DNA of 64,000 bases from Rhizaria sp. SCN 62-66 (taxonomy: Eukaryota): positions 248,001 through 312,000 of the forward strand of contig MEDY01000004.1 in assembly GCA_001724265.1 (NCBI GenBank), given 5' to 3'. Positions within the stretch are counted from its first letter, which is position 1. Each line of letters opens with the position of its first letter. The position numbers and the translations under genes are program-made. Shown here in pieces: positions 1 through 60,352 of this stretch. Below the pieces are notes generated by a model. The model made no database searches. It was not told the DNA's origin and was given only the letters and a program-made list of their open reading frames with translations.

Positions 1-3000
1 ATAGCGCCTCGTCGCGACCGCGGTGGCGGACCCCGATCCCGCGATCCGCCTCGTTATCCTGCGGCTCTTCGCGCGCGACTTTGATCCTTACCTGCTGCAG
101 CCGCGGTACTTGCACGCGCTGTTCGCGCTTGTGCGTGATGCCTCGACCGCGATTCGCCAGGCCGCTCTCGGCATCGTGTGTCGCATTGCGCGCCACTCGC
201 CGGCGTTCATCCTGCCCTTCCTGCAGCAGCTGCTGCTGGAGCTGCTCACCACGGTGCAGAGCGCCACGGAGCCGCGCGCGCGTGAAGAGGCCGCGGGGCT
301 GCTGGCATACATGGCGTCGTCTAACCTGGCGCCGATTCGGCCGTTCATCCCGCCCGTGCTGCGCGTGCTCACGCCTCTTACACCCGACGTGACCTCGGCC
401 GCGGTCACCACGGCGCTGCTGACTAGCATCGGCGCAATGTCGCAGCTAGGTGGCCGCGACGCGTTTCCCCATGTTGCCCCGCTTGTGCCGCTCGTCATCC
501 GCATTTTAATTCACAAGGAGGCCGCTGGAGCACTCTCTGTCGCTGCGGCTGCCGCAGCCTCGTCTTCCACGATGGGAGCTGGCGCTGCGCCCACCGTTCA
601 GTCCGGTATGGCTGCACGCATGGGTGGCGCCGCGCGCGGGGCCGGTGGCTTTGGCGTCGGCGTCGGTAGCCGCGACGTCACGGCTGCCTCGCTCGGCGGC
701 TGGGGCGGCATGGCGGCCGGCGCAGGTGGCTCTGGCCCCATGGTATCGGCGCAGGCGCTCGAGTCCTCGTGCACGATTGCTGCTGCGGCAGCTGCGGCTG
801 CTGCCTCCGCTGCGGCCGGCTACGCGGGCTCTGCTCCCGGCGCTGCGGCGTCGGCTGCTCAGCAACAGGCTGCCGCGTCTGCGGCTGAGCTCACGATGCG
901 CGTGCTGTCTGCGCCGTCACCGCTGCTGCAGGCTGTTCGCCACGACACTGCGCTGCGCACTCTGGCGCAGATCCTTGGTTCTACAGGCTGGGTCGTGTCT
1001 CCCTATTTTCACTTCCCGTACCTGCTCCCACTGCTGCTGATGTTGATCCAGACCACGACAAGTCTAAGTGTGCGTTCTGAGGCCGTCACTGTGCTCGCAA
1101 TCGCGGGTCCGCTGGACCCGCACACGGTGCGCACGCTGCAGTCCGCGGCCGCGTCGGCGCGGCTCTACCGCAACGTGCTACGCCAGGCGGACACGGGCGC
1201 TGCGGCGCTGGACCTGGAGGCGCTCGAGGACGAGGTGAATACGACGCTGCACATCGCTGAGCGCACTGCGGGTCAGCGCGAGTCCTCGCTGCGCTGGCAC
1301 GCTAATAAGGCGGCTGCAGTCGCCGCGGCTGCCGTCGCGAATGCAACCGCTGCTGCCGCAGCCGCAGCCGCGAACGCGCAGAACCTGGCTGCTGAGGAGC
1401 ACAAGCAGGCCGAGATATCGCATCATCACATGGGTACAACTGCTGCTGTCGCCGCCGTCGCGGCCGCCGCAGTTGCCGCCGTCCGCGCCGCAGGCGTCAC
1501 GGCAGTGCACGACGGCCACGCGGCGCGCGTGTACGAGCACACGCTGCGGCTGCGGCAGGCGCTGGCTGTTGTCCTCGCGCCCGGCGCACCGCTGCCCGCG
1601 CGCGGCGACGTCGTGCAGCGCGGGCCGAGCTTTATGGCGACATCGCACGCCGCTGCGCACGCTCGCTGGGTGCACGCCGTGACGGACGAGTCGGGCCACC
1701 AGCCCCCGCTGCGGTACCGCCACTACCAGCACCAGGTCGGCGCGTCCGCTGCCGGGGCCGGTCACGGTAGCCACGGCCACGTCGAGGACGGCCCTGCGGC
1801 CGCTGGCCCGACTGAGGCGTACGGCGCTATGGCGATGAACCCCGCCTCGCCGGTGCCGCAGCAGCCGTGGGAGAACGAGTACCAGGCGCGGCAGTTGGCT
1901 GCAGAGCAGTGGGCCGGCTCGCAGGGTTATGACGCCACTGCGTCGCCGTTGCCCCCGTCTGCGGCCACGCTGAACTCGACCGCACTGTCAAGTGAGAGCA
2001 AGACTGGCGAGGGTGCCGAGGACGAAGCCGTTGGCGAGGTCGTCGAGGGCCGCGGCCGTGGTCGTGGCGTGGCGTTTGCGCACGGCGACATCTCGCCCGC
2101 CACGGCCGCTGCTGGTGCGGCGGGCGAGCGCGCCGAGGACGTCGACGATCAAGAGGTGCGTGACGGCGAGCCCGGCGGCGACGGCGAGGGCGAGGGCGGC
2201 GACGGAGCCGAGTTCTGCGACGCGCGCTTTGAAGGCGAGTACGATACGCAGGACGATAACGGTGACGAAGACAACACGCGCGGTGGCGGTGACGACGGTG
2301 ACGCAGATGGTGCCGGTGCCAGCGGCGATCACGGGGAGGGTGAGGGCGACACCAACGAAGGCGACGGTGACGGTGATGGTGACGTCGATGCTGATACGGA
2401 GGGTGACGACCAACAGTTGTATGAACTTGACACGAGCACTGTGGACGCTGTTGCCTCCGTCCCCGTTTCCAATGTGATGCAGGCTTCCTCTGCTGCTCAG
2501 GTGCGTCTTGCCACGCTTAACACTGCAATTTCATCATCTGCCAGCTCAACTGCGGTCGCCCCAGTCTCGGTTGCAGGTGCCGGGCTTGTGCCCTTTGACC
2601 GCACTGCTCATCTTCCCTCGCGCCGTCGTGGGCGTAGCCAGCGCCGCGCACTGCTGCCCGTGCCGATGCTGCGCTCTGAGCTCCCGTCGCTGGTTCGCGC
2701 CCGTCTTACCACGGCTCTGTTTCAGGCCACGGGTGGGTCTGCACATGTGTATGTCCCGCAATACCACTACATCTCGCTTCTGAGTGCCGCCAACGCGAGT
2801 CTGGTTCCTTTTGCGGCCGCGCACGCCGGTGCAAATGCTGCTGCGCCTCACGCCGCGGGTCCTAACTCAGGTGCCGTCGTTCCCGGTGGCGCTGCCGCTG
2901 CGGGTTCTGGCGCAGTGTCTGTGCTTGAACCGAGTCTGCGCGCGTTCGACGATTCATACCACCGGCGCATTGCGCTCGAGGCGCTGCTGCACATTCTCGG

Positions 3001-16520: not shown

Positions 16521-17167
16521 GCCTGAGAAAGCCCGGTGACGAGTGCTACTCGGCAGAAAGTGGGCACGTTAAGAGTCCCACTCTCAATCGATGGGGCAAT
16601 ATAAAGCTGTCCAAGAGCACGGGACGCCAAGAAACAAACGCTTTGGGTCTACATGTCAAGGAGGGCAGAGAGCGAACGATGATTAATAAGATGGTGTAGA
16701 CCGTGAGGTGAAAAAAGCAAGAATGCACATGAGAGAAAATAGAGAAATCAAACTATACACTTTACGTCATATCCATCTAGCCTTCTCTGGACCTCGCTGA
16801 GGAGCCGTTTCTAGGAAGCTCGCTTTCAGTGAACGTTTTTTAGCCTCCTTCGAACTTTTTTTCGGCCCTGCGCGCTGCCCGTTGCGCTGCCGCGAGAGAC
16901 GTTGGTTTGAGTTGGATCGATCATTGAGGTCCTGGACATATTCCGTCGTCAATAACAATTTATGACATTTGTCTCGTTTTGATCGGGTGTGTTGGAATAT
17001 ATATATTTTTTAGCTCTCTCTTTTGTGTCGTATATATGTCAGATCGAAGTACTTTTTATCCCACCTCAAACAGCTCTCATCAAGCCCAGCATTCATCGCA
17101 CCGTCGCAGTTCCACTTCTTCCCTTCATTCAGTTCCAGCACTACTGGCTGTGCTTTGCTTGCCCGCC

Positions 17168-22290: not shown

Positions 22291-25200
22291 ATGGACAGCA
22301 ACCTGAGGGGGGCGAATGCGCCCCCGCTGTTCCCGGCGCCCGCGCCTGACGGCAACCGACCTTCACAACCGCTTGCACCGCCAGGCCGCGCAGGGTCGAG
22401 TCAGTCGATGCGCGCTGGGCCGCCATACGCCCCAACGCCTTCGTCCTCACCATCTCAGTCAACTCATACAACGCTCATGCCACAGGGCACTTCACTGCGG
22501 TCCCTCCAGAGCTTGCAGGCTGGCTCCTCCATCCCTTCGGCCCTGGGCGGCTACGTGCCCGACTTTTCCGCGCACGGCGCCTCTGAGGCGTCCGACGACT
22601 CGCTATCCTTCCAGGCACATCTGCAGCACGAGTCGCTGCCAGTCTCCCCGACCAGCCGCGGCGTCTTCGCCCACCTGCACCACTCGGCGCGCCCCGGGGG
22701 GCTGACCTCCGTCGTCATCACCGCCGGCGCCGCCGCAGGGGCCGCTGACCGCGCTACTACACGTTCTGCGATGCGTCAAATCTCTGCGCGCGCGCCGCCC
22801 GGCTTTTTCGACCTGCCCTCGCTGCCGCACACTGCGACCACTGCCGCCGCCACGGCTGGCGCAAGCAATGGCAAGGACGCTCTCGCGTGCCGCAGCTACG
22901 ACGACCACCGGAACGTGCCCAGCAACGCGGCGGACAGCAGCAACACGAACCCTGCGGAGTTTATGCTGAGCCACGCGTCGTTGGAGGCCGCGCTCGAGGC
23001 CGATGCGCTCTGCATCGATGGCTCCGCAGCCGCAGCCGCAGCCGCCGCGGCCCCCGCGCACGCCCCCGCGTGCCCCATAGACTTCCCGCGCCCCGCGATG
23101 ACTGCCACCAGCTCCAGCAGCACTGGCACAGGCGCGGGGGCAGGCGTGGGGCATGATGAGGGCGCTGGCGCCAGTGAGGCTGACGATGTGTTCGTCATCA
23201 CACCGCGGTCGCCGATCGTCACCGCGACGTCGGCGGCGGCCGCGCACAACACGGGTGCGTCAGATTACGCGCGGTTCGGCCAGTATGAGCAGTACGGCCG
23301 CGGACCTGGACATCATGGCAACTCCCGCACCAACAGTGGCGACCCTCCCAGCGACGACAGTCTCGCGCTGCCCTTCGACCACCACGTGCACGGCCACATG
23401 CACGTACATGGCCACGGTGCGGGCATGATGTCGTCGTTCCCCGACGACTCGGACGACCACGTTGAGTCGCAATCACGCCCGCAGTCGCACTCTCGGTCTC
23501 AAGTGCGGCTCGCGACCAGCGTCGGGACAGACCCCGATCTGGACCAGCAGCAGTTCGTCGCGACCGCCAACGCCGAGGCCGCCAACAGGGCCATTGCGGC
23601 CGACGCATCCAAGGCGCCCACGCCCGCGTCCGACTCGGCCGGCGCCGCGGGCGCCGCGGCCGGCGAGGCCGCGGGTGGTGAGACCGCCGCACCCAACCTG
23701 GCCCCGGCCGCGCCCGCGTTCGCGGCCGTCGCGCCCGCGCGCGTGGTGTTCGCGGCGCCCAACGGCCACGCGCCCGACGCCGCGATCCTCAAGCACACGT
23801 GCCGCGCGCACGCGCACTGCGCGCCGGGTCATAGACACGAGTCGGTGCGCGGCAGCGAGATGGCCGCGTTGGCCTCGCTCGACGCCGCCGCCGCCACCGT
23901 CGCCGCCACGGCCGCCGTTGAGGACGCCGCCGCAGCCTAGACCGGCTCTGGCGCCGGCGCTCTCGCCGGCAGCTCGGCCACCAGCGCGGCGGTCGCGGCG
24001 GCCGCACAGCTCGGCGCCGGCCCCGGCGGACTCCCGCTGTCACGCGCACTGCCCGTGGCCGAGGGCGACGACCCCAACTGTCTGGCTTGCGCGTTCGCGC
24101 TTGATTGCTCGATGTTGCCCGCCGCAGGCGCCACAGCCGGCTCGGTCACGCTCGCCACGCTGCGCGCCGCCGTCGCCCATGCCGAGGCTGCCACGGGCGC
24201 CGCGGCCGGGCACCTCATCATCCCGGGCGTCGTGCCTTTGCTCCGCGTCCACAACGCTGCGCACGCGCATGACGCTGCGGTGACCCACCGCGCCGCGATG
24301 CAGGACACAACGTCCGCTGCGGGCGCTGGCGAGGGCTCCGCAGTGACTCTGGAGCTGGTCCCGCCCACGGCGGACCCAGTTCACACTGCGCTGGGCCCCG
24401 CGGACCGCTGGGAGTTCGAGGCCGAGGAGCGCGCCGCGGCCGCGGCCTCGGGCCTTGCCGCCGCAGCCGCCGCAGCCGCCACTGCGGTTGCCGCGGGCAC
24501 CGCTTGCGCGCCCGCTCAGGCGCACACGCACGCACTGGCGATGGCGGCGGTGGCCGCGGGGGCGGGCGGGTCGCCCTCGCACGGCGCCTGGCCGGCCGAG
24601 GGTACGCTCAGCAACAGTAACAGCTACAGCTACTACGGCTCCGCCTCGGCCAGCGCCGCGCTCAGCGCCGCGCCCGCCGGTGCCACGGTCCAGACGCGCG
24701 CGCGCGCCGGCAGCGCCGCCGGCTCTACGCCCTACGCCGGGCCCGCGAGCGCCAGCGCCAGCGGCCTGTGCGGCCCCGCGAGCGGCACTGCGCTAGCGGC
24801 GCTGTATGGCAACAACCGCGCTCACCACACGTACTCAGCGGTGGGGTTCCGCCAGCTGCAGCAGCAGCAACAGCAGCACCTGCAGCAGCTCCAGTTTCAG
24901 CAACAGCAGCAGCAGCACCAACACGAGGCCGACTGCGCGGGCGACGACGGGCTCGTGGTGCTGCCGTACGCGCCGACCCCGCCCTACGGCGCGATCGCGC
25001 TCTCGAGCGGCGGGCCCGTGGCATCGGCCGCCACGGGCGCGCTCTCGGCGCTGCACGACCGCTCGCCCTCGGTCACGCCCAGCCTCCACGGTTACGGCCC
25101 CGCGCCGGCGCCCGCGGGCGCGCATCACCACCTTGCGCTCGCGCACTCGCACTCGGCGCTTGCGGGGGCCTCCAGCGCCAGCTCCGCGGCGGGTAACGCC

Positions 25201-28200
25201 GCCCCCGGCGCCGCAGCCGCGCCCGCGCTCGGGCCCGGGCAGCTCTCGGTCGCGCAGGCCGCAGCCGCACTCAGCGCCGCGCGCGTGGAGGTGGAGCGAC
25301 TGGCCCCGCTGCTGCCCGACGTGCGGCCGCTGGGCCCCGTGTGGCGGCAACTTGCCGTCGCGGGCGCCGGGGCGGCCGATTTCGTCCCCCCGCCAGAGTT
25401 CAACGGCGGCGCCGGAGGCGGCGCCGCGGGGAGCTCGCTGCTGCCGACCATCACGAACGCCACTGCTAGCGCCGTCTCGGCCGCGTCGGCCGCAGCGACC
25501 GCCGCCGCGCTGCCGTCCGCGGCCCCACTGCTGCACGGCGGCGCGCCCTATGGCCCCCTGCGCGGACACATCACGCGCATCGGGTCCTACGTGCCGCCGC
25601 GGCCGCTGGGCCCGCTGGACCCCGTCCCGGCCTTCCAGCCCGTGCGCTGCTGCCTGGTCGAGACCTGTGACCTCGAAGCCGTGGTCAACGACTTCTGCCC
25701 TGTACACGCGTTCGTGTCGACCCAGGCACGCACCGACGACGCCGCCGTGCGCCTGCGGGCAGCGCTCAAGGAGGAGGCGCGCGCCGCTGCGTACGCCACT
25801 GCAGACGCTGAGATGAGCGCTAACAACTCTAACACGGGCCTTGTGGTGAGCTACGGCAACAACAACGGGCAGTCACAGCCTCCGTCGGCGCCTGTGCTGG
25901 TGCGTTCGCTGTCTCCCCCGCCTCTGCCGCCGCTGTCCCCGTCGTCGTCGTTGCGGCAGATCTCGCACCACTGGACGCTGCGCGTGTCGGACAACCCCGT
26001 CTACGCGCAGAACGCGTACGCCTTCATCGTGCGCAACCGCGCTCACAGCATCGCCGTGGCCTTCGACAAGCTCACCGGCGCGCTCCGCGTCGTCGTCGAC
26101 GGCGTGCGCATTCTGTCCCGCCGCCTCGACCTCGACGTCGCCGCCCTGCTCGCGCGCGCCCACGGCGTCCCCGCCGCGGCGCCCGCCGCCGTCGCGCTCC
26201 ACGCGCCCGCGCACCTGGACGCGGGCCGCTCGCTGCCCTGGGGCGGCTCGCCGCTGCGCCTCACCGGCCCGCCCCAGACGCTGGCCGCACTGACCACGTT
26301 GCGGCTGCCCGTCGGCGTCGCGGTCACGGCCGCAGCCGACGCGGGCTCCGCTGCGGCCTCCTTCTCCGACGCGGCCGCAGTCTCGGGCGGTGCCTCGAAC
26401 GCCAATGGGGCGGACGCCGCGCCCTGGGCCGCCGTGCCGCGCCTTCTCCCGCGCGCGGGCCCGCGCGGCCCCTCGGCGGCCCCGCTGGACCCAGTGCTGC
26501 ACTTCAACCCGCACGCCGTGGACCGCGCGCGGAGGGCCTTCGCGGCGACCGCGTTGGCCGAGCGCGTGGCCGCCGCTGCCACCAGGGCCAACGACGCCGC
26601 GCTCGTCGCCGCAGCGCTCGCCGCGGCGGGCCACGCGCCCGACCAGACCGCCGCACTTGCGGCGGGCCACGCGCAGCTCGTGCAGCAGCAACAGCAACAG
26701 CAAACTGTTCCGCTGGCTGGCGACCTGTCTGCGAGCGCGTATCCGTCATATGCCGCCTCCGTGTCCCCGTCGCCGTCGCCTAACAACGCCGGCGGCCACA
26801 GCTACAACCCCGCCGCCGCCAACGCGAGCGCCAGCAGAGGCAGCAGCAGCGGCAACGGGCTGTCAGGAGCGATGACGTGGACCGGCGCCGCGGTCGGCGC
26901 CGGCGCACTGCCAGTGTCCGTGGTTCAGATGGCTGAGGCCGCGGCCGCAGTCAACGTGCTGACGTTTCCCTTCGCGTTCAGCCTCCGTGGCGAGCGCACG
27001 CTCGAGACGTCGCAGTGCTGGCTACTGCTTTTCATCGAGCCCGACTCCGTGCTGCCCTCCGTCGCCGCCGCTGCGCCCGCCTTCGCTGCCTCCGCCGCGG
27101 CCGCGAACGCGAACACGGCCGCCAGTACCAGCGCCGCGAGGCTCGGGATGGGCGACGAGCACATCAACGTCAGCGCTGACGCTGCTGCGGCCAACAAGCC
27201 GCCGGTGACTGCCGAGGCCGCTGCCGCCGCCGCCGCCGCCGCCGCCGTGGCCGCGACGGGTGCCGACGCGGTCAACGTGTCCACTGCGCTGCCGCTGCTG
27301 CTGGGCGCGGTGCAGCGCCAGCTCGCGCTGCCCGCCGCGGCCGCCGCGACCTGCGGCGCCGCCGCGGCGCTGCAGCTGACGGCCCCGGGTGCGGCCGCGC
27401 TGCCGGCCTGGGTTCACACCGCGCCCGCCGCCTTCGCTGGGCTCGGCTACGCGCTGCCTGCGGACGGACCCGGCGCCGCCCCACGCGCGCTGCCGTCGCT
27501 GCGTGTGCGCTTCGAGCTCTTTATCGACGACGCGCCCTTTGCTGCGGCCCGCGCGCGCGCGCTGCGCTGCGTGCGCCGCATCGTCTTTGCCGACGATAAG
27601 CTCGTGCACCCCGGCGTCACCACGGCCGCCAACATCGCCGCCGCTGCTGCTGCCGCGGCCGCCGCGAGCAATGCCGCCAGCGCCGCTGCCGTGGCTGCGG
27701 GCCAGTACCCCGGCGCTCCGCTGGCGCCACGCGCGCTGCCCGTCTCGTAGCGCACGGCCGCGGTCCCCGGCGGCGACGGCGGCGACGGCGGCGACTGCAT
27801 CGAGCCCGCGCTGCTGCAGTACCACAGCCACGGCCACGAGGGACAGCTGGACGACGACCCGCTTGCGCTGCCCGCCGCGGCCACCGCGCCCGCCGGCGCC
27901 TCCCTGGCCGGGCGCTCGCGCTCCGTCGTCACCGTGCCCCCGGCCGCCGCACACGCGCATGCACAGGCGCTGGCGCAAGCGCAGGCGCAGGGCCGGATCA
28001 TGGCCGACGTGGCAGCCGCGGCAGGCCCGCTGCCGCCCGGCACGGCCACTCCGGGGACCGTGTTGGCTGCCGTTTCCTCCGCTGCGTCCCACATCGCAGC
28101 CGGTGGCTCCAGTGGCTGGTCCGGCCCTGGCGGGCTCAACGTCTCGCTGACGGCGGCCCCCATGCACAGCGGCTACGGTGCGCAGCAGCAGCACGCGCAC

Positions 28201-31200: not shown

Positions 31201-31223
31201 GACACCGACGCCTACCCGGACGA

Positions 31224-31274
<51 letters not shown>

Positions 31275-40046: not shown

Positions 40047-40332
40047 ATGAGCGCTCCTGGCGGTGGCTACAACCACGGCTACCCGCCCGCGGCCGGCTAT
40101 GGCGTGCCTCCCTCTGGCCCTCCTTCTGGTCTATACGGCTACGACGCCCTCGGCCCGCCGCCCGGCCGCGGCAACAACTGGTCCGGCTACTCCTACGGCC
40201 CTCCCTCCGGGCCCCCCATGGACGGCCCGCAGCAGCCCTACTACGCGCCAGCGTATCCCCCGCCGCCCTCACAGGGCTACCCGTCCCCGCAGCAGTACGG
40301 CGGCGCCCCGCAAACCAGCTCCAGTAGCAGCT

Positions 40333-40363
<31 letters not shown>

Positions 40364-42026
40364 CGGCGGCGGCGGCAGCAGCGCGCCAGAGCACGCGCTG
40401 TCACCACAGGCCGAGCGCTTGAATCTCGCGCACGTGGCGCTGACGTCGAGCGGCCAGCGCTACAACAGTCCCGACAAGCTTGCGCACGACCTCGCGGACC
40501 TGCTGAGCCCCGGCTCGGGCTACTAGCTCGTGACGCGCGCCGTTGTGCTGCCGCTCGACCAGTACGGCGTGGGCGGCACCCACGCGCCCACAGTCATGGT
40601 CGGGCTCGCCACCGTCTGCCCCGGACGCGCCGGCGTCACGCCCACGCCGCTGGGGATCTATTTCCCGCCCGGCTACCCCGCGCAGGCGCCCTACGTTGTG
40701 GTCGAGCCGCTGCCGCGCCAGCGCCTGGCGTGCAACAACGCTATTGCACCTGCCACGGGCGCCGTAAACCTCAGGTACCTGCAGCAGTGGGACGCGCGCA
40801 ACAGCACGCTCAGCGAGCTCGTCACCTTCGTGTCCTCGCTCTTCTACTCAGCCTCGGGCGTCGAGGGCGACAACACTGGCGGCGGCAACGGCGGCGACTG
40901 GGGCCGCGGTGAGGCGGCGGCGGGCGCGGGGGTCACCAGCCGCAACAGCGCCGTCCGGCAGCCTCCCGCCGTCTCCGCGGCCCCGCTGCGCCCCGGCACT
41001 GCGGGCACCGGCACCGGCGGCACCGGCATCGGCGGCGGCGGCGGCGGCGTGGAGTCGGAGGACGAGCAATTGGCAGTCGCGCTGTCGCGTTCGCTCGCCG
41101 ACGTGAGCCTCTACTCGTCCGTCTCGAACCTCTCCACCCACTCCAGCGCCAAGTACGCCGTCCCCGCCTCCAGCTCGGGCTCGAACGCTGGCGCTGGGTC
41201 GGGCGCTGGTTCGGGCCGAGGCATGTTTGCCACTGCGTCCGACGTCGCCATCCCGGGCCCCGCACCGCTCTCCACCCGCAGCGGCAACCTCGGCACCACT
41301 GGCGCGGGCGCGGGCGCCAAGCTAAGCGCGGAGGACGAGGCCGAGCGCGCGGGGCTGGAGCAGATTGTCGCCGTCAAGGCCGAGACTGCGCTCAACGCAC
41401 ACGCGCGCGCCGCCACGGCCGAGGCGCAGGACCTGGCCGCCGCGGGCCGCGCGCTCGCCGCCGTCGCCGCCGCCGCCACGGCCGCTGCGCGGGCCCGCGA
41501 GGACGCCGCGGGCGCGCTGGCGTCCGCGCAGGCCGGCGCCGACGCGCAGGTGCGCGAGCTGCGGGCCTGGGTCGCTGCGCACGAGCAGGCCCTCGCCAGC
41601 TCCAACACCACTGCCAGCGCCAATGCAGCAGGCGCCAAATCTGCCGCGGGCGGGCCGGACGTGAACGCGAGCGTGGCGTGGGGCGACCCGATTGCGGCGG
41701 CGCTGGCAGGTGCGGTGTGCGACGACATGGCCGCCGAGGACGCGCTGACTGCGCTCGACGAGCTGCTTGAGGACGAGTGCGTCGACGTCACCGAGTACCT
41801 CAAGGAGGTGCGCAAAGTGGCCAAGCAGCAGTTCCTTGCACGGGCCGCGCAGGGCCGCGTGGCGCAGGTGCAGCGCGAGGCGCTGGCCACGCAGGCGCGC
41901 GTGCGCGAACAGATGCGCGCGCAGCAGCTGGGAGGCCCGGGCGGACAGGGCGGACAGCTGCAGGGGCTGGGGCAGGGGCAGCAGGCTGGGGCGATGCCGG
42001 GGCAGGGGCAGTACCAGATGCGGTGA
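40047..42026 (+). CDS. TSG101: ESCRT-I subunit Vps23/TSG101 (Pro/Gly/Tyr-rich N-terminus, UEV domain, UIM-like motif, coiled coil, steadiness box), 659 aa reading through TAG 40524-40526
   Basis: UEV: YNSPDKLAHDLADLL..GY*L...PLGIYFPPGYPAQAPYVVVEP...GAVNLRYLQQW...STLSELVTFVSSLF. Steadiness box: DDMAAEDALTALDELLEDECVDVTEYLKEVRKVAKQQFLARA. The two listed ORFs are in the same frame and separated only by TAG-CTC. Stop is TGA. Confidence 0.88.
40323..40381 (+). repeat. (AGC)n(GGC)n coding microsatellite (poly-Ser then poly-Gly) in the TSG101 N-terminal extension
   Basis: Direct inspection of the sequence. Confidence 0.8.
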
Positions 42027-49350: not shown

Positions 49351-49592
49351 CAGCAACAACACACAAATGATGGTTGAATTATGAATGTCAAATTATGAAT
49401 GTCATGGTTGAGTTGCATGTACTTCGACTATGTATTGTATGAAGCGAATATTAGAATTAGAGTAGATAATTGGGGCTATATAAAGGTATTATATAATATT
49501 ATATAACTATGAAGAATACAGACTATAAGATTCATGATTTTTCAACGCTTAGTTGCTTGTTGTCGCATGGTCTTGCGACCGTCACAATGCCG

Positions 49593-52500
49593 TTACACAC
49601 ACCTATCTGGGATTGACCGGAGCGTGTAGAGCGCTGAGAGCAAAAGTATGCATGAAAGTAGTCCACCAATAACGTCAATAATGAACTTAGGTGCAAATAC
49701 TGCCCAAACCATCAAATGGCGCCGCTGAAAAAGTAAAGAAAAGGGAGACAAAGCAAAGACGGTAATATCGATTAGTGAAAGAGCTGTGTCAATATGGTGG
49801 CAGTGCGTACGCCAGCAAAATGTCACAAGAATAGAAGGAATAGTTCAAAAATTGTGGGGTGAGAATGACTTACGTGCAGCGCGACGTTAGCAGCAGATAG
49901 CACTGCTTTAAACACGTTCAAAGTCATGAACGTAATCGCTGCAATACGCGCAGACGCAACGATGCCACTTACATCTGTTGTAGCAGCGGGCTTACCAAGC
50001 GTCATCATCGCAGCGCAGACAGAACTTTGTACACGGGCAGCTGTAGTCGTACTGACGGGGTTTGACTCGGCGAATGAGACAAACTGTAGAAGATGAAGCA
50101 GTCGGTGGCCCCATAATGCGCTGACAGCCAATGTGCACAATAATGGTCCTGAAAACGTGTTCAATAACACCGAACTCGCAGAGTAGCTATTTAAGTAATA
50201 GGACAGTATGCAGCAATGAAATTCATGTTAGATGTTAAGACATTGATAACTCAGTTAAACTATAAGCGATGCCATCATATTGCATCATTTTTTGATTTGA
50301 ACGTACACAAAGCTGAATTTGTCTTCAAAAATAAATGCAGCCGTGGTGTGCAGATCGGAGAATCGGTGTGAATGCCCCGTTGCGTAAAATAAATATTGGC
50401 CTAGGCACCATAAAAACGCTGCCTCTGTCGCTGTAAAAGCGTACACGGCCTTTGAGCCCAAGTGACCCGGTGTGAGTTCTGTCATCACGTGCCATGCAAG
50501 CAGCGCCATCACAACTGGAGCTGCAGCAAGTGGACCTAGGGTGGTACATATCAGCGGCGCAGACACCATTAGCGCTCCAACCAACAGCTGAGCCCGTGCT
50601 CGTGTTTTCGCAATCGGACTGTTGCCGTTTCGAAGTGCAGTGAATAGAAGTGGAAGGCCATTCGCCACAGCGATAATGACAAATGAAAGAAGTTGGGCTT
50701 TAGGAGCCGCAATGGTCACAGTGTCTCGCATGGCAGCGATTTGTGGTGCATCAAGAGAAAACAGCAATGGTTGTTGAAGTAAGACAAGCCGCAGCGCCAC
50801 AATAATCGCTATGGCGGCAAGCGAAGGACACCAATACGTTGCAAGTGGAAGAAGAAGTGCAAGGCGACAGACCCACGACGGGAGCGCAAATCGCACAGCA
50901 GTGTTGTTCCAGGAACGCGAGTGGCGCAAAAACAACATATCGCGTCGGCACTCAAGTGCTAGAAGCAATGATAGTAGTAAGACCAATACGAGTACGTGAG
51001 GCACCGAAACAATCTCGGCAATAGCAGCCTCGGCAGCCGTCGCGGTAGTAGTCTGCCCCGTGATACTTGATGAAGCTGACATCAACGATGTCGCACTGGA
51101 ATGGGCAAAGTAGTGTGAACCATCAAGCTTAAGTAGCGGGCTGAATGCTACAGTGAGCTCACGAACGGAAAGCGGCGCGACAGCTGCTGAGTTAGAATTA
51201 CCAGTTGTAGGTGTTGGTGCTGCCAACTTGTCGGCCGAACGCACTGTGTAAACGCTGGATAGATTGTCTGAAGTGATATCGTCAAGTCTCTCACTGTGTG
51301 AAGAGTCAACGACATGATTGTGCTCATGTGAGTGTTCGTCTGATTCAGGCTCAGAGACTCCGTGGATGTGGTCAGTGCTGTGGCCGTGCACGTGATCCCC
51401 GCGTGGCACCACGGGCACGCGCACACCCGACGCAGCCACTGTCGCTCTCGCCTCAGCTGCGTCAGCATCAAGTGCTACTGCGTCGCCCTCGTGCGCGAGC
51501 TCGCCATCTGTAAGATCAAAGCTTAGCCGTGTTGCCTGCATCGTGCCATCGGCCGCAACGCGCGCACTTACAGTTACCCCACTGCTGCTCTGCCCAACCG
51601 GAACAGTCACAGTTGAGCCAGGTGGCGTCGCTGTCCCTGCCACAGCAGCTGTGACGAGAGCACGCGTCAGAGTATCGCCAAAAGCGGGTGCTTGAGAAAG
51701 CGAGAGCTCAAAACCCGCAAACGCAGTTAGTAGTGGAAGTGCCACAACCAACCAAAAGAGCATGCGCATGCGAGTCGCAGTCACAACAACAGGCGCAGGT
51801 GTGTGAGTGCCGCGACTGGGCGCAACAAGTGCCGGCAACTTTGCAAGGTCGCGCGCATAGAGAGCTGCAAGTGAAAGTGCGAGTGACACGGCAAGAAAAC
51901 GTGACTGAGCGTCATCATTGATAATGCAAGAGTTTGAAAAACTCCCGTGGGCCACTGCGGCAGCAGTAAGCACGACTGGCAACAGCTGCATCGCGAAGGG
52001 CCACTGTGGTTGCTTTGCGTCAGCAGCAATAGAAACAGTCGCACGGGAGTGTGCAATCCTAACTAAATCTTGTGATGTAGATGTCAGCAGCGGTTCGTGC
52101 TCGTCGTCGTTGAGAATGGTGTTGGCGTTATCTTTGCTATGTACCACATTACACACCTTCGCTGAAATAAGGCGTGCGTTGTCATTGCATTTGCCACTCC
52201 AGTTCGAATGCATGCTCCAGAATATTAACAACAAAAATGTGCCAATAGAACACGCCAGCATCCACTCCAACGGCCCGAGTCGTGACTCAGCAACGATCTC
52301 TGCCGCCGCAGACACAGCCTCAGTGACAGGGGCAGACAGTAACCCATTTGTGTCAAGTGCAGCGAGCAGCTGCAGCGCGTATCTCGCTATAACAACTCCT
52401 GTCACGCCAAATGAAAGCGATACAACGATGCTATGCAAACTCGCAACAGTGAACCAAAGCGGATATTCAGGCATAAGCTCGTTGCGTGTACTGACACGTG

Positions 52501-55500
52501 TGCAGAGTGACACTGCAGTTGCACCAATGGCTGTTAGTGTGGCGAACGAAAGCACAAGTCCCAGCACCATCGCTGCGCCGTCGAACTGGGTCCACTGCTG
52601 CCTGAACGCACGCGCCACGCGATCGTGCCAGTGCGACAGCTCGAGGATAGATTCTTCGAGCTCGCGCTCCCAGTGAAGGGCAAACCTGCGCTCTGCGGCA
52701 GCAAACGCAGTGTTGAAATCAGCAGACGCAACGGCCGCACGCGCGGCTGCAGCGTCGTCATCAATAGTAATACTGTGCGGAGTTGTCGGTTGGCGCTGAC
52801 TTAGGGCGAGAGTGGCGCAGAGTGACTCAGCAGGCGCCAACGCACCATCTGCAACCACAGCGGCGCGGGCAAGTGCACGCACTGCTGACGCGCGCGCGTC
52901 TGCAAGCACTGCGCGCGGAAACGAGCGCGCGGCAGCCGTATAGCTCGCAGTGTATCGCAGCACCTGGAGCAGCGTAGTGCGGTGCAGGGACAACACGGAG
53001 AGTAGAGAGCGATAGCGCGTCGCGGCGGCAGTGACAAGCGCGACATCCACGTCGGCAGCACTGTCATGCGAAACGGACTTCGGAACACTCATGCTGGTTA
53101 GGGTCATATTTTGCGCGTTGTTGCGAAGCACGCGTGCCACCAAAGGGCACAGTGGCACCGTTGCAAGAGCGGCTCGTGACGGTGTCGGGACGTAAGGCTG
53201 CGCAACGTGGCGGAAAGCAGCATCCCTATCTCTGCTGTCAGCGTTACTCGTAATGCGTTGCTTCTCCTGTGACGGCATGAGAAGATCCGCAATCGGCTTG
53301 CCCAGCGAGCCAAATGGCACTGGAAGACCGAGTAGCAGCGACAGCGTTGGCACGATATCAATTTGGCTCACCTCTAGCGCAGCATCAGTCGCGGACCGCG
53401 GAATCGGCGGTTTCTTCGCGTGGCTATCATAGTTAGCAATATTGACAGTGTGTCCGTCGTCCTGATGCTCACAAATACCGAGTTCGCAGTCAACATGTCC
53501 AGAGCCACTCTCACGGTGAGTCTCGGACTCGTGCTCCCAGTACCTGTGCTTGTGAGCGTGTTTTGTGCGCAGCCCCTGCAGAGGCACCGACGAGTACGCC
53601 CACAGCCCCGCGTGCGTCTCCTCCGCGCTGCCGCCGCCGTGGTTGCCACCTCCGGTCATGCCGTGATCGCCCATCACAAGCAGCAGCGTGCGGCCATGCT
53701 TCGCGCGTGCACGGCCAGCACTGCGCGTTGATGTGTCCTCAGATAGAACCCGTGGACAATGTGTGCGGCGCCAGCCACCCATAAGGCTCTTATCGGCCAT
53801 GTTATTGCGCTGATCGTCACGGTCATCTGCCAGCTCCTCTGCCACTGCGTCAACATATTCGATGAGCCGCGCAATGTCTGCGTCGACCTCGCTAAGCTTA
53901 GCCGCCATGCGGCTGTGAGCCGGGCCAAACCGGTGGCCAACGTGGTCGACACCAAGCATGTGCGCGACAATGAGACCCCATCCCTGGTCGTCATCGGTCC
54001 TCGTGTTGAAGGGGTCGCTCCAGAGAGGGTGCTCAGGCCCCCAGCCTTGCAAACGCAACAGCGTCCCTGTTGAAGCGGCATCAGCCTCAGCCTCGGCAGC
54101 GCGGCCCTGAACAAGGGGCGCGGTGAGAAACGACTCAGAGTCCATGTCGCCGCCTGAGACCACTGACTGGGAATGTGATTGGGAATGCGAAAGTGACCGT
54201 GGCAGTGCGTCCCCGCACAGAGCACGGCGCAGTCCGCGGCGGGTGCCCGCGTCCACTGTGTCCAGATCGGCCACGTCAAACGAGGGATACGGCTCGGAGC
54301 GCGAGAAGTGGTTCGGGAACATCGACATCCACGTGTCGTCGCCCACGAAAAAGCTGCGCAAAGTGCGTCCACATTGACCGCAACCGTGTAGAGCGGGCGT
54401 GTGGCTGTGTGGCGCGGGTCCAGACTAGCTGGCCTGCTCACAGTCACTCGCACGCTCGCGGTCGCCCGCCAGGCACTGACCGTGCTGTTGTTGTTGCCGC
54501 GCAAACGCCGCCGCGAGCTGCGCCGGCCACGAGTCGTCGCCCACTGCGGCCGAGTTGAAGTTGCGGCCGATGTCGAGGAACGTCGGTAGCCCGCCCGTGG
54601 TAAGGCCCTTAAGCCGCTGCATCGTAACTGTGGGCGCGTCGGCGACAAAGCGGAACAGGCGCGACCGCGCCGGCTGCATAGCGAGCGCGCGGGCCACGCT
54701 CGGGAGCTTGTTAGCCCAAGCAGGCAGCGGCGGCGCAGTCACGTTCCCATCACGAGTGCTGCTGTTATAAGAGCTGTCACCGTGTGTGTGTTGTGCTCGG
54801 GGCTCCTGGTCGGCGAGATTGTGAGTATCTTTGTCTGAGCGAGACTGTTTCTGCAGCTCTAGTTGAAGTTGCTGCTCCTGTGTGAGAGCGGTGGCGTTGG
54901 GAGCGAGGAAATCGAACCGTAGAGCGTCGACCATGAGAACGATCACGCGGTCGAACAGGCGCGGGGACCAGCACGACGTGCTGTCACCGTCGGCGCCGCA
55001 ACCGGCGTTGTCGGGGGAAGAATGTGAGCAGGAGCTCGACTGGGCACATGTGCGGACAGCGTCTGTGTCCAGACGTGCTTTTGTTGTTCGTGAGGTTGGG
55101 TGGCCTGAGATCGCGTCAAGAATAGGTGTGGCTGCAGGGATATCTGGCAGGGTAGTATGGCGTCGTGCATTCGCATCATGAGAATGTCCTGACTCTGCTG
55201 TGTCAGCAACAGTGGACGCGGAGTCAGAATGAAGCTCAATTGAACTGTCATCAAAGAGCGTTGTCCACTGGGACGGTACGGAAGATATCTCACATGTCGA
55301 AACATCGGGAAGCTCATATCGATTAAGGAAAAAGCCTATGGTAACATACAGAAAAAAACTCGGCCAATGTATGAGTGTACGACAGAAATTAGAGAAAGTT
55401 AGACATTCAAGACAACGCGTGTGTGGAGACGAACCTGTGATGAAGATATAGAGCGCAAAGGTTTGGGCTGCAAGCAACACCAGCACAAGACGACATATTA

Positions 55501-55603
55501 TGTTTCGGGGTTGTTGCGTGGGAGATGGCGCGACGCTTGGAGCAGCAACGTCGATGTGTGACGCGACGGGGGAGACCCGACGTCCAGAGGAATCGTCTCT
55601 CAT
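49593..55603 (-). CDS. PIGO: GPI ethanolamine phosphate transferase 3 (PIG-O/Gpi13), 4 exons (55603-55435, 55335-50307, 50186-49874, 49724-49593), about 1880 aa reading through TAG 54427-54425
   Basis: Motifs GFFLNRYEL, VIVLMVDALRFDF, FVADAPTVTMQRLKGLTTGGLPTFLDIGRNF, FFVGDDTWMSMFP, PYPSFDVADLDTVD, AHMLGVDHVGHRFGPAH, MGDHGMT.GGNHGG, VSQIDIVPTLSLLLGLPVPFGSLG, FYATGH and RRHLMVWAVFAPKF. Three introns with GTTCGT, GTACGT and GTAAGT donors restore the frame. Stop is TAA. Confidence 0.93.
49725..49873 (-). other. Spliceosomal intron 3 (PIG-O)
   Basis: CAC|GTAAGT...TTTTCAG|CGG gives LH-RRHLMVW. Confidence 0.88.
50187..50306 (-). other. Spliceosomal intron 2 (PIG-O)
   Basis: GT|GTACGT...AAATAG|C, AT-rich, phase 2. 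Confidence 0.8.
55336..55434 (-). other. Spliceosomal intron 1 (PIG-O), 99 nt, in frame and stop-free
   Basis: ACAG|GTTCGT...CCATAG|GC. Removal gives the conserved ITGFFLNRYEL. Confidence 0.8.
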
Positions 55604-56950
55604 CGAGACCTGGAGAGGCAGATGCTGGTGTGGAATGTAAAAGGCTCTATAGACTATACAAAAAGAAAAAAGAAAACAATGTATATTTAATTATGTGTTA
55701 CTTCTGTTGCACTGTCAACGACGGATACCTGAACTCAATACAGAGGATAGCGTATTGAACAACATTGGATCGTCAACGGCGACGAAGTGAGTCCCATTGT
55801 TGCGAGTTAACTATTCAAGGTCGATATCTGCACATAGCAGTTAGATTTAGGAGACTTTTTTGGAATAATCGACCATCAACAAGATTTTGTACATTTTGCT
55901 TGTTTTTATGGTATAGGTGTTGTCTACCTTGCCTCATTTTACGCCATTGATAAATACAGTCACCCAAGTATCGCTCCGCGAAGTTAGTCTTTATCACACA
56001 CCAACAACATAATGTAAGCAACCCTCAACATATATTTAATATATACGGCAGCGCATATCATGTGCATACTCTAATATTGCGATATCACCTTAGCACAACA
56101 AGGAATGTGCTCGCAAAATCTTTGTACTGCGCGTCCTTAAAGTAGCGTAATAAGGACAGATCTAGCGGCGCGTAGATACTGGATGTCAAGCTACGAATGT
56201 ACTGAAGCATTTATCATGTGCATCACTGAGAGTCCAACTGTGTGGCAGTTGAATCTCTGGACATTTTGAGTAGTATATCTTCGCAAGAAACAAGCGAGGT
56301 ACGTTGTGAAATAGCATGTAAAACTCAAGTATACATTGGCATAACTGTCAGAGTTAGTATTGAAAACATTATTATATGATACAACACATAAATCTTTGTG
56401 CTGCATCCGAAGAACACATAAAAATATCAAGTCTTTAAGTTGTTATCAATGATTTAATGTGGTTAGCCACAAACGCTTTTGGGCGCGTGCAACCGGACGG
56501 ATGGCGGGAGCGAAGGTGCCCAAACAGCACGCGACCATTAAAGAATAGCCACGGTGCGCTACTTAGCCAATATCCGTGCATGTTTCGTTGATGTATTCGG
56601 AGTTAAGTGTCTTGTTTTTATGTATTTTAATAATGCATTTCGTTATGAACCGAAGAGCGAGCGTGAATGACATCCTTGATTTAAACTTGCCTCACTCCCT
56701 GCCCCGCTTCTCAACATCTGATATCACCCCGTCTGCTCCTGTCCCCACGCTTCTGCTGAGCAAAGCCACTCGAGGGCGCATACAACAACTTGGTTTTGTT
56801 CCGCCCATTTGTTTTTCCTTGCAGCTCCCTCTCACATTGAAGAGCTCGTGCGAAGGTTCTCAAGCTCTCGCTGCAACGGGTGTCCAGGCCCTCCCCCTCT
56901 CACCCACTCGCCCCACGCTCGCACTCCAGAAGCCACCCCGCGCGCCCGTC

Positions 56951-59567
56951 ATGTCAGCGCTTGATCACCCCCTGGGGCTAGAGATTTCCCCCAACGACCC
57001 GACGGATGTGTTCGAGCTGCAGGCGAAGCTCGGCGAGGGCAGCTACGGCTGCGTGTACGAAGCTGTCGACCGCCGCGACGGCCAGATCGTCGCCGTCAAG
57101 GTCCTCGACGTCGGCGCCGAAGACATGTCCGACATCAAGAACGAGATCAACATCCTTAAGAACTGCTCCAGCCCTTACATCGTCGCCTACAAGGGCTGCT
57201 TTCTGTACCACTCGCAGCTCTGGATCGCGATGGAGTACTGCTCCGCCGGCTCCGTCGGCGACTTGATGGCCATCTGTGACCGCACGCTGCACGAGACGCA
57301 CATCGCGGCGCTCATGTACCTCTCCCTGCGCGGGCTTGAGTACCTGCACACGCACAAGATGCTGCACCGCGACATCAAGTCGGCGAACCTGCTCCTCACG
57401 TCGAGCGGCGAGTGCAAGCTGGCCGACTTCGGCGTCTCGGCCGAGCTCACGCACACGCTCGCGCGCCGCAACACGGCCATCGGCACGCCCTATTGGATGG
57501 CGCCCGAGGTGCTCAAGTCTACGGCCTACGACGCCAAGTCCGACATCTGGTCGCTGGGCATCACCGCGTACGAGCTCGCGGTCGGAGAGCCGCCGCACGC
57601 GGACGTGCACCCGATGCGCGTTATCTTCATCATCCCCAGCGCGCCGCCGCCGACGCTGCCGGAGCCGCACCGCTGGTCCAGGGAGTTCCACGACTTCCTC
57701 GCTCGCTGTCTCACTAAGGAGGTACGTCGCAAAGCATGCCGCGACAGCGACAAAAACAGCGAACGAAGCTACACAAAGTGCCACGCTGATGCACGATCTC
57801 CAAGCCACTCTGACTACCTCCATATGTTCATGCAATGATCTCAATTCTCTTTCTAACATCACTCTCATCCATGCATGTCTGTCCTTTGCCCTCCACTCTG
57901 CCCACGCCGCCCGCAGCCCGAGGACCGTCCGTCGGCGACGGCGCTGCTCTCGCACCCTTTTCTGGCCGCGCACGCGCGCGACGCCGGCGCAGCCCGCGTG
58001 GATCCGCGCGCCGTGCTGGCCGGGCTCGTCGCAGACGCGCTGCCGGAGATCCACCAGTTCCGCGCCGCCGAGACGCTCGAGGCCGACATAAAGGCCGCCG
58101 AACAGCTCCAGCAACAGCAACAGCCGCATCAGCAGCAGTTCGAGCAGCAGCCAGCGGGTGTGAGCGTCAACGTGACGGACGCGGACGGTGTGGGCGACGC
58201 GTGGGGCGGCGGCGGCACCGTGCGCGTGCGCTCCTCGCCCTCGGCCGGCAGCACCACGGGCACCGCGGGCGGCACGCTGGCCGCGGGCGTGTTTAACGCC
58301 ACAGGCACTATGCTCATCACGCCCAAGGCTGCCTCCAACGCCAACAACGTCTTCAGCAGCAGCGGCAGCAGTGCCGGGAACGGCGCGTCTGTGGCTGCGG
58401 TCACTGTGGCGGCGGCCTCGGTCTCGGCCGGTGGCGAGCTCCCCACCTCGCCGCCCCCGCCTGCACGTCGGCCACCACTGCAACAGCAACAGCAGCAGCA
58501 GGCGCCCGCCCCCGCCCCCGCCGTGCTGCCGCCCACGCCATCGGGGTCGTCCCACGGCCCGCAGCGCGCCGCCCCGCGCACGCCGCTCAACCACAGCATC
58601 ACCAACACCAGCGCCAGTGCGAGCTCTGCAGCGGCGGCGGCTGCGGGGGTGGGCATGAGTCCGCAGCAGCTGCGGCTCGCCGCCGTGGCCGCCGCCGCGA
58701 GCGCCAACGGCGGCGCCGGCGCGGACGCGGGCACGGGCACCACGGTCATTGCGCCGGGCGGCGGCGGCGGCGCCAACTGCTCCTTCACGGCGGGCATCAG
58801 TCCGTCCAACGGCGGCCTGCACAACCCCGCCGGCACGAGCTTCGCGAGCCTGACGGGCACGGTCAAGGCGCCGTTGTCGCTGCTGAGCCAGACGGGCGGC
58901 GGCTTCCTACCTGACGACCTCAGCGCGCCGTCGACGCCCTCAGCCGCGTCTGGGCCGGCCTCGACGACGGCCAACAGCGACACCGGCGCCGCGGGCACGC
59001 TCCGCCGCCGCGGGTTCCGCAGCCGCCTGTCTGGGCTGCAGGCCGCCGCGCTCGACGGGGACCCCGCGGGCGACGCCGCCTACGCCGCGGCCGCCGCCAA
59101 CGGCCCGCAGCAGCAACAACAGACGCAGGCGCAGACACACACTGCGGCTGCGGATGTCGCTAGCAACCCCTTCCTGGCCGGGATGATCGCAGACGTCACG
59201 GCCTTCCGCGAGCAAGTCAGCCAGCACGGCGCCGGCGCCCCCGGCCCCGCGACGGGCACACTGCGCGGGGGCCGCGTCGCCGCCGCCGCGTCCGCGTACG
59301 CCTCAGCCGTCGCAAACAGCAACAACAGCAGCCACAGCAGCTTCGGCTCCCCGGGCCCCGCCGCCACCGCGCTCTCCCCGGCCAACAGCAACGGCGGCGG
59401 CAGCGGAGGCGGCGGCGGTGACACGACGCCCCGTGCACCGCGCGCGCCGGCCCCGCGCCGGTCGATCGCGGCCGCGGTGGCGAGCGCCACGAGCGGCGGC
59501 ATCAGCGCGCACCCGGGTGTGATGCCGCTGTCGCCCACGGCGCACGCGCACGTAACCGCCGCCGCCT

Positions 59568-59598
<31 letters not shown>

Positions 59599-60352
59599 GC
59601 ACTGCCAGAGCACGGTGGGCACGACGTGCGAGGCGCCCAAGGTCGAGCGCGCAGTAACACGCCACAGCGTCGGCCCCGCGGACCAACACCTCGCTGCCAC
59701 GGCCGCAGCCACGGTGACGGGAGCGGCAGCGGCGAGGGCGGCGCCGACTGCGAGCGCACGGGGCAGCGTGAGCGGCGCGGGCGTGCCGCCGCCGCCGCCG
59801 CCGCGGCCGCGCGGGCGGCGCGACTACACGCAGGGCACGTCGCGGCTCAGCACGTACTTCGGCACCCTCAAGGCCGGCACGCTCAACAGCAACATCAGCA
59901 ACGGCAGCACCGCCTCCGCGTCGGATGTGCGCCAGGAGAGCCTGTTGGAGCGCGCCGAGCGCGAGGACGCCGCCGCCGCCGCTGCCGCGAAGGCTGAGGC
60001 GGAGGCGCGGCAGCGCGCTAACGCCGCCGCCGCCGCTGCCGCTGCTGCCGCTGCTGAGGCGGCCGCAGCCGCCGAGGCTGAGCGCGCGCGACAGGCCGAG
60101 CTGGACGCGGCGGCGTGCGCGGGCGACGGGAGCGCGTACGAGCCTCTGTTCTCTGACCGCGTGGCGGCCGACGATCTGCCGGTGTTGGCGACGCCGGGGG
60201 AGTTCACCGAGACCGAGCTGCAGGAGTGCATCGACGCGCTCGACGTCAACAAGGAGCTCGAGATGGCCGCGCTCAAGGCCTACTACGCCGGGCTCACGCG
60301 CAGGCTCAAGCAGGAGATGACGCGGCGCACCGGCAAACAGTACCCGGAGTGA
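56951..60352 (+). CDS. STE20-family MST1/2 (Hippo/Krs)-like Ser/Thr kinase with C-terminal SARAH-like coiled coil, 2 exons (56951-57721, 57917-60352), about 1068 aa
   Basis: KLGEGSYGCVY, VAVK, LWIAMEYCSAGSV, HRDIKSANLLL, KLADFGVS, RRNTAIGTPYWMAPE, HPMRVIFIIP. Intron 57722-57916 (GTACGT..CGCAG, phase 0) gives KE|PEDRPSATALLSHPFL. Stop is TGA. Confidence 0.92.
57722..57916 (+). other. Spliceosomal intron (MST-like kinase)
   Basis: GAG|GTACGT...CCGCAG|CCC completes kinase subdomain XI. Confidence 0.88.

Follow-up and report, generated by a model that had tools for sequence, protein, structure and literature searches.

Nuclear genetic codes with UAG as the only stop that has turned into a sense codon have been described from a handful of lineages only, namely exLh, Iotanema and a few ciliates, as far as the available excerpts of two papers tell (PMC5304391, PMC11687900). 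For the sainouroid rhizarian exLh, in which UAG is read as leucine, the excerpts report 384 in-frame stops in 71 genes, all of them UAG, together with UAA (56) and UGA (15) as terminators (Panek et al. 2017, PMC5304391). According to the same two partial sources UAG is translated as glutamine, with UAA kept as a stop, in Iotanema spirale, Protocruzia tuzeti and some phyllopharyngean ciliates (PMC5304391, PMC11687900). Here we analyze a stretch of 64,000 nucleotides (nt) of DNA from an uncultured wastewater protist, Rhizaria sp. SCN 62-66 (contig MEDY01000004.1, positions 248,001 to 312,000); this whole stretch is called the window. On its minus strand it carries a homolog of PIG-O/GPI13, the GPI ethanolamine-phosphate transferase 3, with a TAG codon in the reading frame. 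The data suggest that UAG is probably translated as an amino acid in this organism and that it is the only stop codon which has changed to sense. Our confidence in this reading is moderate because everything rests on 64 kb of DNA.

The codon t54427-a54426-g54425 is the sole internal stop of the PIG-O gene. It splits one frame into two stop-to-stop open reading frames (ORFs), 55690..54425 with 421 amino acids (aa) and 54424..50285 with 1379 aa; after the TAG the frame stays open for 1,379 codons. The gene model starts with the ATG at 55603 and terminates with a TAA at 49595-49593 (Table 1). A previous inspection of the window, made from the letters of the DNA only (the sequence-only reading), had described a PIG-O gene with three canonical introns that is intact but for a genuine in-frame TAG in its catalytic part. 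Our model of 1,894 codons is in full agreement with this description: the TAG is its only internal stop and the three introns are all GT-AG. The peptide quoted in that reading and the conserved blocks flanking it were reproduced exactly from the minus-strand ORFs.

The identity of the gene was examined with Pfam and with a search for homologs. The part after the TAG matches PF01663 (E 3.9e-8, 33.7 bits, cut-off 23), while the 421-aa part before it has no Pfam match by itself. The search returned 839 homologs at E<=0.001. Those of the best 120 that carry a specific name are mostly called 'GPI ethanolamine phosphate transferase 3' or 'phosphatidylinositol glycan class O', and the rest of the 120 have generic names ('hypothetical', 'unnamed', 'AlkP superfamily'). 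A PIG-N or PIG-G name does not occur among these best 120 matches; the assignment is one by names, at an identity of 26-46%. Apart from the window's own gene call, no relative above 46% identity was obtained in this search. Metagenome contigs contained the identical sequence (L001) and two related loci at 29-31% identity.

Conserved motifs are found on both sides of the TAG. DALRFDF and TVTMQRLKGLTTG stand before it and DHVGH and GDHGM after it; we take these to be the catalytic (metal and nucleophile) motifs of the alkaline-phosphatase superfamily. Because they flank the TAG on both sides, neither half alone should be an enzyme. The immediate neighbors are the block LPTFLDIGRNF..DSWPAQL, which precedes the TAG, and the block FFVGDDTW, which comes after it. 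A C-terminal motif, RRHLMVW..FAPKF, is encoded in exon 4 and is shared with five homologs (P0003, P0004, P0005, P0011 and P0019). The protein shares with known PIG-O/Gpi13 enzymes an alkaline-phosphatase-type catalytic domain, the motifs of which flank the TAG here, and, after this domain, a long multi-pass C-terminal part. It differs from them in being about 1.7 times as long as usual (PIG-O/Gpi13 proteins have about 1,000-1,100 aa); the surplus is made up of many low-complexity loop insertions, and the TAG lies in one of these.

This loop was compared in the 105 homologs that have both of the flanking motifs. It has 31 residues in 74 of them, the mode of the family, more than 45 residues in 21 and a maximum of 90, and in the window protein it measures 78. 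From this comparison the loop appears to be an insertion hot spot in which a translated stretch of 78 residues lies within the range of the family. The location of the TAG within an insertion between the conserved blocks, also part of the sequence-only reading, is borne out in this way, and the insertion is specific to the lineage. A small hairpin (54415-54436, minus strand) is predicted around the TAG at flanks of 15, 20 and 30 nt. The TAG sits in its 5-nt loop CUAGU, which is closed by a 4-bp stem, CCAG/CUGG, with two further pairs beyond a bulge.

The window itself stems from a bioreactor or wastewater metagenome. RNA and DNA contigs were placed on its positions 49000-56500 only. A DNA contig from Logan (X3) spans 52388-55725 with no difference from the window; it is possibly the window's own source. 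A contig of X4 (54084-54434) has one difference, at 54379, and keeps the TAG. We read X4 as DNA because its contigs cover introns and spacers without joints (its record 10 passes unspliced through all three PIG-O introns), and as a second strain because it accounts for 27 of the 29 substitution sites listed over 7.5 kb, the other two being in X5. A separate metagenome assembly (L001) has the identical 29-nt context around the TAG. The PIG-O TAG is therefore real and present in three assemblies, one of them from a second strain. A base-call error, which the sequence-only reading had named as a possible objection, was not found in the X3, X4 and L001 contigs, and with the same TAG in all three there is practically no chance that sequencing or assembly created it.

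The PIG-O TAG is not alone. As a first step we listed every stop in the window that joins two long ORFs in the same frame. We then derived a codon log-odds score from eight long ORFs and used it to examine all stops on both strands, with the condition that both flanks of a stop score best in the frame of that stop among the six frames. With flanks of 150 and 240 nt exactly four stops remain, each of them a TAG (23938, 27748, 40524 and 54425); no TGA and no TAA passes. The flanks of the PIG-O TAG score best in the gene's own frame at both sizes. With 90-nt flanks a few weak TAA or TGA matches at gene edges also pass and the PIG-O site is lost, and a cruder scan with 120 nt listed in addition one TGA on the strand antisense to an Ala-rich gene. 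Counted over the 17,918 codons of 14 ORF pieces, the in-frame stops are four TAG, no TAA and no TGA. Frameshifts are absent from the ORFs of 3,958, 3,660 and 2,294 codons.

The ends of the genes show the opposite picture. After the four sense ORFs that end with a TAG the guanine plus cytosine content (GC) is 0.61-0.82 and the same frame goes on. Twelve other ORF ends were taken as gene ends; seven are TAA, five are TGA and none is TAG, and the GC that follows is 0.28-0.50. Simple arithmetic on this table of internal versus terminal TAG (4/0 vs 0/12) gives 1/1820. The PIG-O TAG is hence one of at least four in-frame TAGs in a window in which no gene ends in TAG, a point that goes beyond the sequence-only reading and turns an oddity of a single gene into a probable property of the organism's translation. 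The bases that follow the four TAGs are T, C, A and C, with no common readthrough motif. The base before the TAG is C (CTAG) at three of the four sites.

Table 1. Position, strand and main characteristics of the features discussed in the text (coordinates refer to the window; GC3, GC at third codon positions).
Feature	Position	Strand	Remarks
In-frame TAG, PIG-O codon 393	54425..54427	-	codon scan, homology on both sides
In-frame TAG in UEV domain, Vps23/TSG101 homolog	40524..40526	+	codon scan, alignment
In-frame TAG no. 1, Ala-rich gene	23938..23940	+	codon scan
In-frame TAG no. 2, Ala-rich gene	27748..27750	+	codon scan
TAG directly before first readable TOR codon	2..4	+	possible fifth case or intron end
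PIG-O / GPI ethanolamine-phosphate transferase 3 homolog	49593..55603	-	4 exons, 1,894 codons
PIG-O exons	55603-50307, 50186-49996, 49938-49874, 49724-49593	-	exon model
PIG-O intron 1	50306-50187	-	120 nt, GTACGT..AAATAG, GC 0.31
PIG-O intron 2	49995-49939	-	57 nt, GTAAGC..TTGCAG, GC 0.54
PIG-O intron 3	49873-49725	-	149 nt, GTAAGT..TTTCAG, GC 0.40
Span with the three GT-AG introns of PIG-O and the two short exons between them	49725..50306	-	
Candidate in-frame intron around the PIG-O TAG, not supported	54354..54476	-	123 nt, GTGCCT...TTGCGCAG, GC 0.67
Vps23/TSG101 homolog	40047-42026	+	ATG 40047 behind AT-rich spacer, ends TGA
Ala-rich gene	22291-33273	+	3,660 codons, ends TAA, GC3 0.81-0.91
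TOR kinase gene	5-11881	+	window opens inside; 3,958 codons visible, ends GFW-TAA, FATC domain

The most informative of the other sites is the TAG in the homolog of Vps23/TSG101. From the ATG of this gene 159 codons lead to the TAG, and the Pfam match to the UEV domain begins at profile position 49, shortly downstream of it. A query of 176 residues with the TAG written as X was run with phmmer against 1.84 billion representatives and gave 47 matches. Eighteen of these span the X and were aligned; the other 29 were excluded, their match starting after the X. Invariant in the alignment are Y27, D36 and L40, which precede the X, and L49, which follows it immediately; the column of the TAG is filled in all 18 homologs (H8 N3 T3 Y1 A1 S1 G1). 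On this evidence the TAG fills exactly one codon position in a conserved domain. A search within 300 nt of it gave no in-frame GT..AG pair whose donor fits the consensus even loosely. A word-based search with Vps23 returned only the window's own gene call. The other three TAG sites, the one in PIG-O and the two in the Ala-rich gene, lie in low-complexity sequence that cannot be aligned.

An alternative explanation for the PIG-O site is that this TAG alone is spliced out and that the other TAGs have a different cause. The sequence-only reading had pointed to a formal in-frame intron with a GTGCCT donor and the acceptor TTGCGCAG, and it exists as described. The donor G54476 could be joined with either of two AGs, 54355-54354 (123 nt) and 54406-54405 (72 nt); both pairs are in frame and keep the conserved blocks. 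The acceptor, TTGCGCAG, raises no objection. All three frames of the 123-nt segment have negative codon scores, so that it shows no coding signal, and its removal would shorten the loop from 78 to 37 residues, close to the family mode of 31. It also fits that one of the real PIG-O introns is short (57 nt) with a GC of 0.54. However, the donor lacks the G at +5 that is found in all three real donors of the gene (GTACGT, GTAAGC and GTAAGT). Between the conserved blocks only three AGs lie downstream of the first base of the TAG, at 54425, 54405 and 54354, and the in-frame GT donors that spare the blocks are GTGCCT (54476) and GTTTGC (54506). GTCAGT (54480) and GTGAGC (54441) look better as donors, but neither is in frame with any of the three AGs before FFVGDDTW; a wider scan showed that the donor at 54441 is in frame only with acceptors beyond FFVGDDTW, the use of which would delete this block.

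The RNA data point weakly in the same direction. The only poly(A) RNA contig that comes near the site (X5 record 20, 54168-54363) extends 10 nt beyond the acceptor at 54354 and has neither a joint nor a loose end there; its depth is about 4, it possibly represents pre-mRNA or DNA carry-over, and it is uninformative on the acceptor at 54405. X5 contributes four contigs in PIG-O exon 1 and X13 a single contig of 166 nt, and the contigs of the four runs, at low depth, contain no splice joint in the region covered. None of the RNA contigs placed there reaches the TAG, a gap in coverage that speaks neither for nor against its translation. Furthermore, the loop of 78 residues needs no intron, considering the 21 homologs with loops of more than 45 residues, and introns cannot account for the TAGs in Vps23 and in the giant Ala-rich gene. 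The doubt which the sequence-only reading had already expressed about the candidate intron is strengthened by the unlike donor and by the RNA contig that runs past the acceptor. We consider it quite unlikely that splicing removes the TAG.

In the Ala-rich gene the GC remains at 0.67-0.83 through both TAGs without an AT-rich dip, while the spacers outside have 0.45-0.50. Intron candidates around its TAGs have only GTGCGC or GTGTGC as donors, and the sequence that they would remove has an in-frame score of 0.40-0.59, compared with a coding mean of 0.29.

A second alternative is that the TAGs are true nonsense alleles and that the assembled haplotype codes for shortened proteins. Another, intact copy of each gene in a diploid or polyploid asexual protist would then shelter them, or only weak near-cognate readthrough would come to the rescue. 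TAG would make up about 62-64% of random nonsense changes in these genes. With a divergence of about 0.4% roughly 200 differences are expected, and four nonsense changes among them would be near the neutral share. It is also true that contigs drop minority alleles. Against this explanation, both strains have the PIG-O TAG, while 27 other sites listed in the 7.5 kb distinguish them. In addition, four TAGs occur in 17,918 codons without any frameshift, TGA or TAA, and TAG is found at none of the 12 terminators; both speak against nonsense alleles. The genes affected include Vps23 and PIG-O, which are usually indispensable.

The differences between the strains add a further argument. Of the 29 substitution sites, the 20 within PIG-O exon 1 were classified; the other nine, which were left out, comprise three in exon 2 and six that lie upstream of PIG-O. 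Downstream of the TAG the 13 differences comprise seven synonymous and six non-synonymous ones, with an expected synonymous share of 0.26. This synonymous excess (binomial p ~0.03, uncorrected for transition bias) again speaks against a nonsense allele. Upstream of the TAG, in the low-complexity N-terminal region, one of seven differences is synonymous and six are non-synonymous. The PIG-O gene is most likely functional and no pseudogene. Taken together, nonsense alleles are an unlikely cause of the TAGs.

It could also be that the A of UAG is edited in the messenger RNA (mRNA) to inosine, so that the codon is read as UGG (Trp). Premature stop codons are edited in this way, stage-specifically and dependent on ADAT, in filamentous ascomycetes. 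This adenosine-to-inosine editing favors a U at position -1 and hairpin loops and hence often hits UAG, according to the excerpt consulted (PMC11156358). The U at -1 is given by the TAG codon itself. At the PIG-O site and at the first site of the giant Ala-rich gene the A falls in a hairpin loop of 5-6 nt at all three flank sizes, and with 20-nt flanks it does so at all four TAG sites as compared with 27 of 98 background TAGs. This result is not robust, however: with 15 nt the numbers are 3/4 vs a background of 37/98, and with 30 nt only two of the four sites remain. Trp does not occur in the Vps23 column in any of the 18 homologs, editing leaves the absence of TAG terminators unexplained, and such editing is known only from ascomycetes whereas the organism falls outside Fungi in trees of the TOR protein (see below). 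The Fusarium and Neurospora systems share with our case intact genes in which an in-frame UAG has to be recoded before the full protein can be made; from what the excerpts say, they differ in that the recoding acts on mRNA, is specific to the sexual stage, is restricted to ascomycetes and predicts no loss of TAG terminators (PMC11156358, PMC5496914). Editing is in our judgment very improbable.

The reading that we favor is that UAG is not, or not efficiently, a termination signal in this organism and that UAA and UGA are kept as stops. In the simplest case a transfer RNA (tRNA) with the anticodon CUA would read UAG, and the release factor would no longer recognize it. The PIG-O TAG would then be an ordinary but very rare sense codon in a lineage-specific insertion in a surface loop, and the full enzyme of 1,894 residues would be made. 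As to the residue inserted by the ribosome, a polar one such as Gln or Glu is our guess, because the two sites that can be aligned face H/N/T (Vps23) and E/H (TOR) in the homologs. Leu and Trp occur in none of the 18 Vps23 and three TOR homologs at these positions.

Several points weigh against this reading. The sample is small, with four TAG sites, one further possible site and 12 terminators in 64 kb. Homology backs only three of the 12 gene ends (the FATC domain of TOR, the core domain near the end of Vps23 and the C-terminal motif of PIG-O); the other nine were judged by the end of the ORF and the fall in GC only. TAG is used 0.22 times per 1000 codons, about six times more rarely than TTA, the rarest codon tabulated (4 vs 25). 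In coding sequence rich in GC3 the share of TAG among random nonsense changes given above makes the observation that all four stops are TAG weak on its own (p ~0.15). ARAGORN found no tRNA gene of any kind in the 64-kb window, and the gene for eRF1 is not in the window either. Finally, the PIG-O TAG lies in a non-conserved loop, in the segment with negative scores and within an in-frame GT..AG pair, and in the region on which contigs were placed no RNA contig covers it, the nearest X5 contig ending at 54363.

The affiliation of the organism was analyzed with the TOR protein. Its best bit scores are with Rhizoclosmatium and Entophlyctis, but a chytrid affinity was rejected by two maximum-likelihood trees; the chytrid scores probably result from shared long low-complexity inserts. 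The window TOR falls outside a clade of Fungi, Rozella and an aphelid that has 99% support. It belongs instead to a clade of seven rows with 100% support, the only named member of which is the cercozoan Paulinella chromatophora (P0125 = EukProt EP00457), and its sister, with 99% support, is a protein of 4,646 residues (P0127). The tree was computed without stramenopile or alveolate sequences. This result from the single TOR gene is a lead towards an affiliation with Rhizaria rather than a placement. A scan of genome contigs with TOR yielded no further DNA of the organism.

The nearest described parallel is exLh. Both are uncultured protists placed with Rhizaria, here by a TOR tree in which Paulinella is the sole named neighbor. 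As far as the excerpts on exLh go, in both only UAG interrupts genes, and the terminators are UAA and UGA only with UAA the commoner one. The two cases differ in the frequency of the codon, 384 in-frame UAGs in 71 genes compared with four in about 14 genes here. They also differ in that UAG means Leu in exLh, whereas Leu is found at neither of the two alignable sites in the window. Moreover, the evidence for the window case comes from DNA. The codes of Iotanema, Protocruzia and the phyllopharyngean ciliates share with the window a change of UAG only, and the polar residues at the alignable columns would fit their Gln; but these are unrelated lineages, and UAG is a regular Gln codon there, to judge by the same excerpts, while it is extremely rare here. 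In the limited collection of literature searched no second case of UAG reassignment from a rhizarian was found, and none from a chytrid or a wastewater protist. The window organism is a probable further case of UAG-only reassignment, with an unusually low usage of the codon.

The low usage of UAG could mark an early stage. We tentatively entertain the possibility that a free-living, GC-rich activated-sludge protist affiliated with Rhizaria is at an early or ambiguous stage of UAG capture. UAG would have been purged from the gene ends and would be tolerated inside genes while still being the rarest sense codon (about 0.2 per 1000), and the event would be independent of, or basal to, that in exLh. 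If true, this would be a natural snapshot of a stop codon changing its meaning, and the very low usage would be informative on how such reassignments begin. If translation of UAG is confirmed, a noticeable share of the genes of this organism will be truncated or split by gene callers that use the standard code. Two prokaryote-style calls in the database, which records contigs of up to 206,822 bp with these proteins, illustrate this. One (P0001) begins at an internal Met a good way downstream of the PIG-O TAG and stops at a TGA within intron 1; the other (P0242) has a GTG start right after the Vps23 TAG. Because these calls start downstream of the TAGs, the public protein sets for the organism are truncated.

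A further TAG stands at the edge of the window, at 2..4, just before the readable part of TOR. The TOR residues after it align from residue 643 of Paulinella and residue 1396 of P0127, and at the position of the TAG itself three homologs have E, H and E. The window provides only 1 nt of sequence ahead of this TAG, which could equally be a fifth in-frame case or the end of an intron.

Some general properties of the window may be added. Spacers and most introns are AT-rich (GC 0.3-0.5), coding sequence has a GC of 0.6-0.8, and few introns are seen. TAA is the commonest terminator (7/12) despite the 64.6% GC of the window. The proteins have 1.5-2 times the usual length through low-complexity inserts (TOR 3,958+ codons, PIG-O 1,894, Vps23 659). 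A search of the window against Rfam gave no match. The 3,660-codon Ala-rich gene matches no Pfam family; it contains a few non-repetitive islands that resemble two copies of one module. A likeness of this gene to FAIM-type modules was considered and given up. A kinase ORF (56567-57838, plus strand) and an ORF at 57857-60352 (plus strand) share one frame and are separated by a gap of 18 nt with two stops and a CTAAC-like motif (57836-57856); the gap is possibly a short intron that keeps the frame, or else the boundary between two genes. An exportin-like gene (Pfam Xpo1; 16928-21676, plus strand) consists of three ORFs in different frames, and the AT-rich gaps between them are presumably introns.

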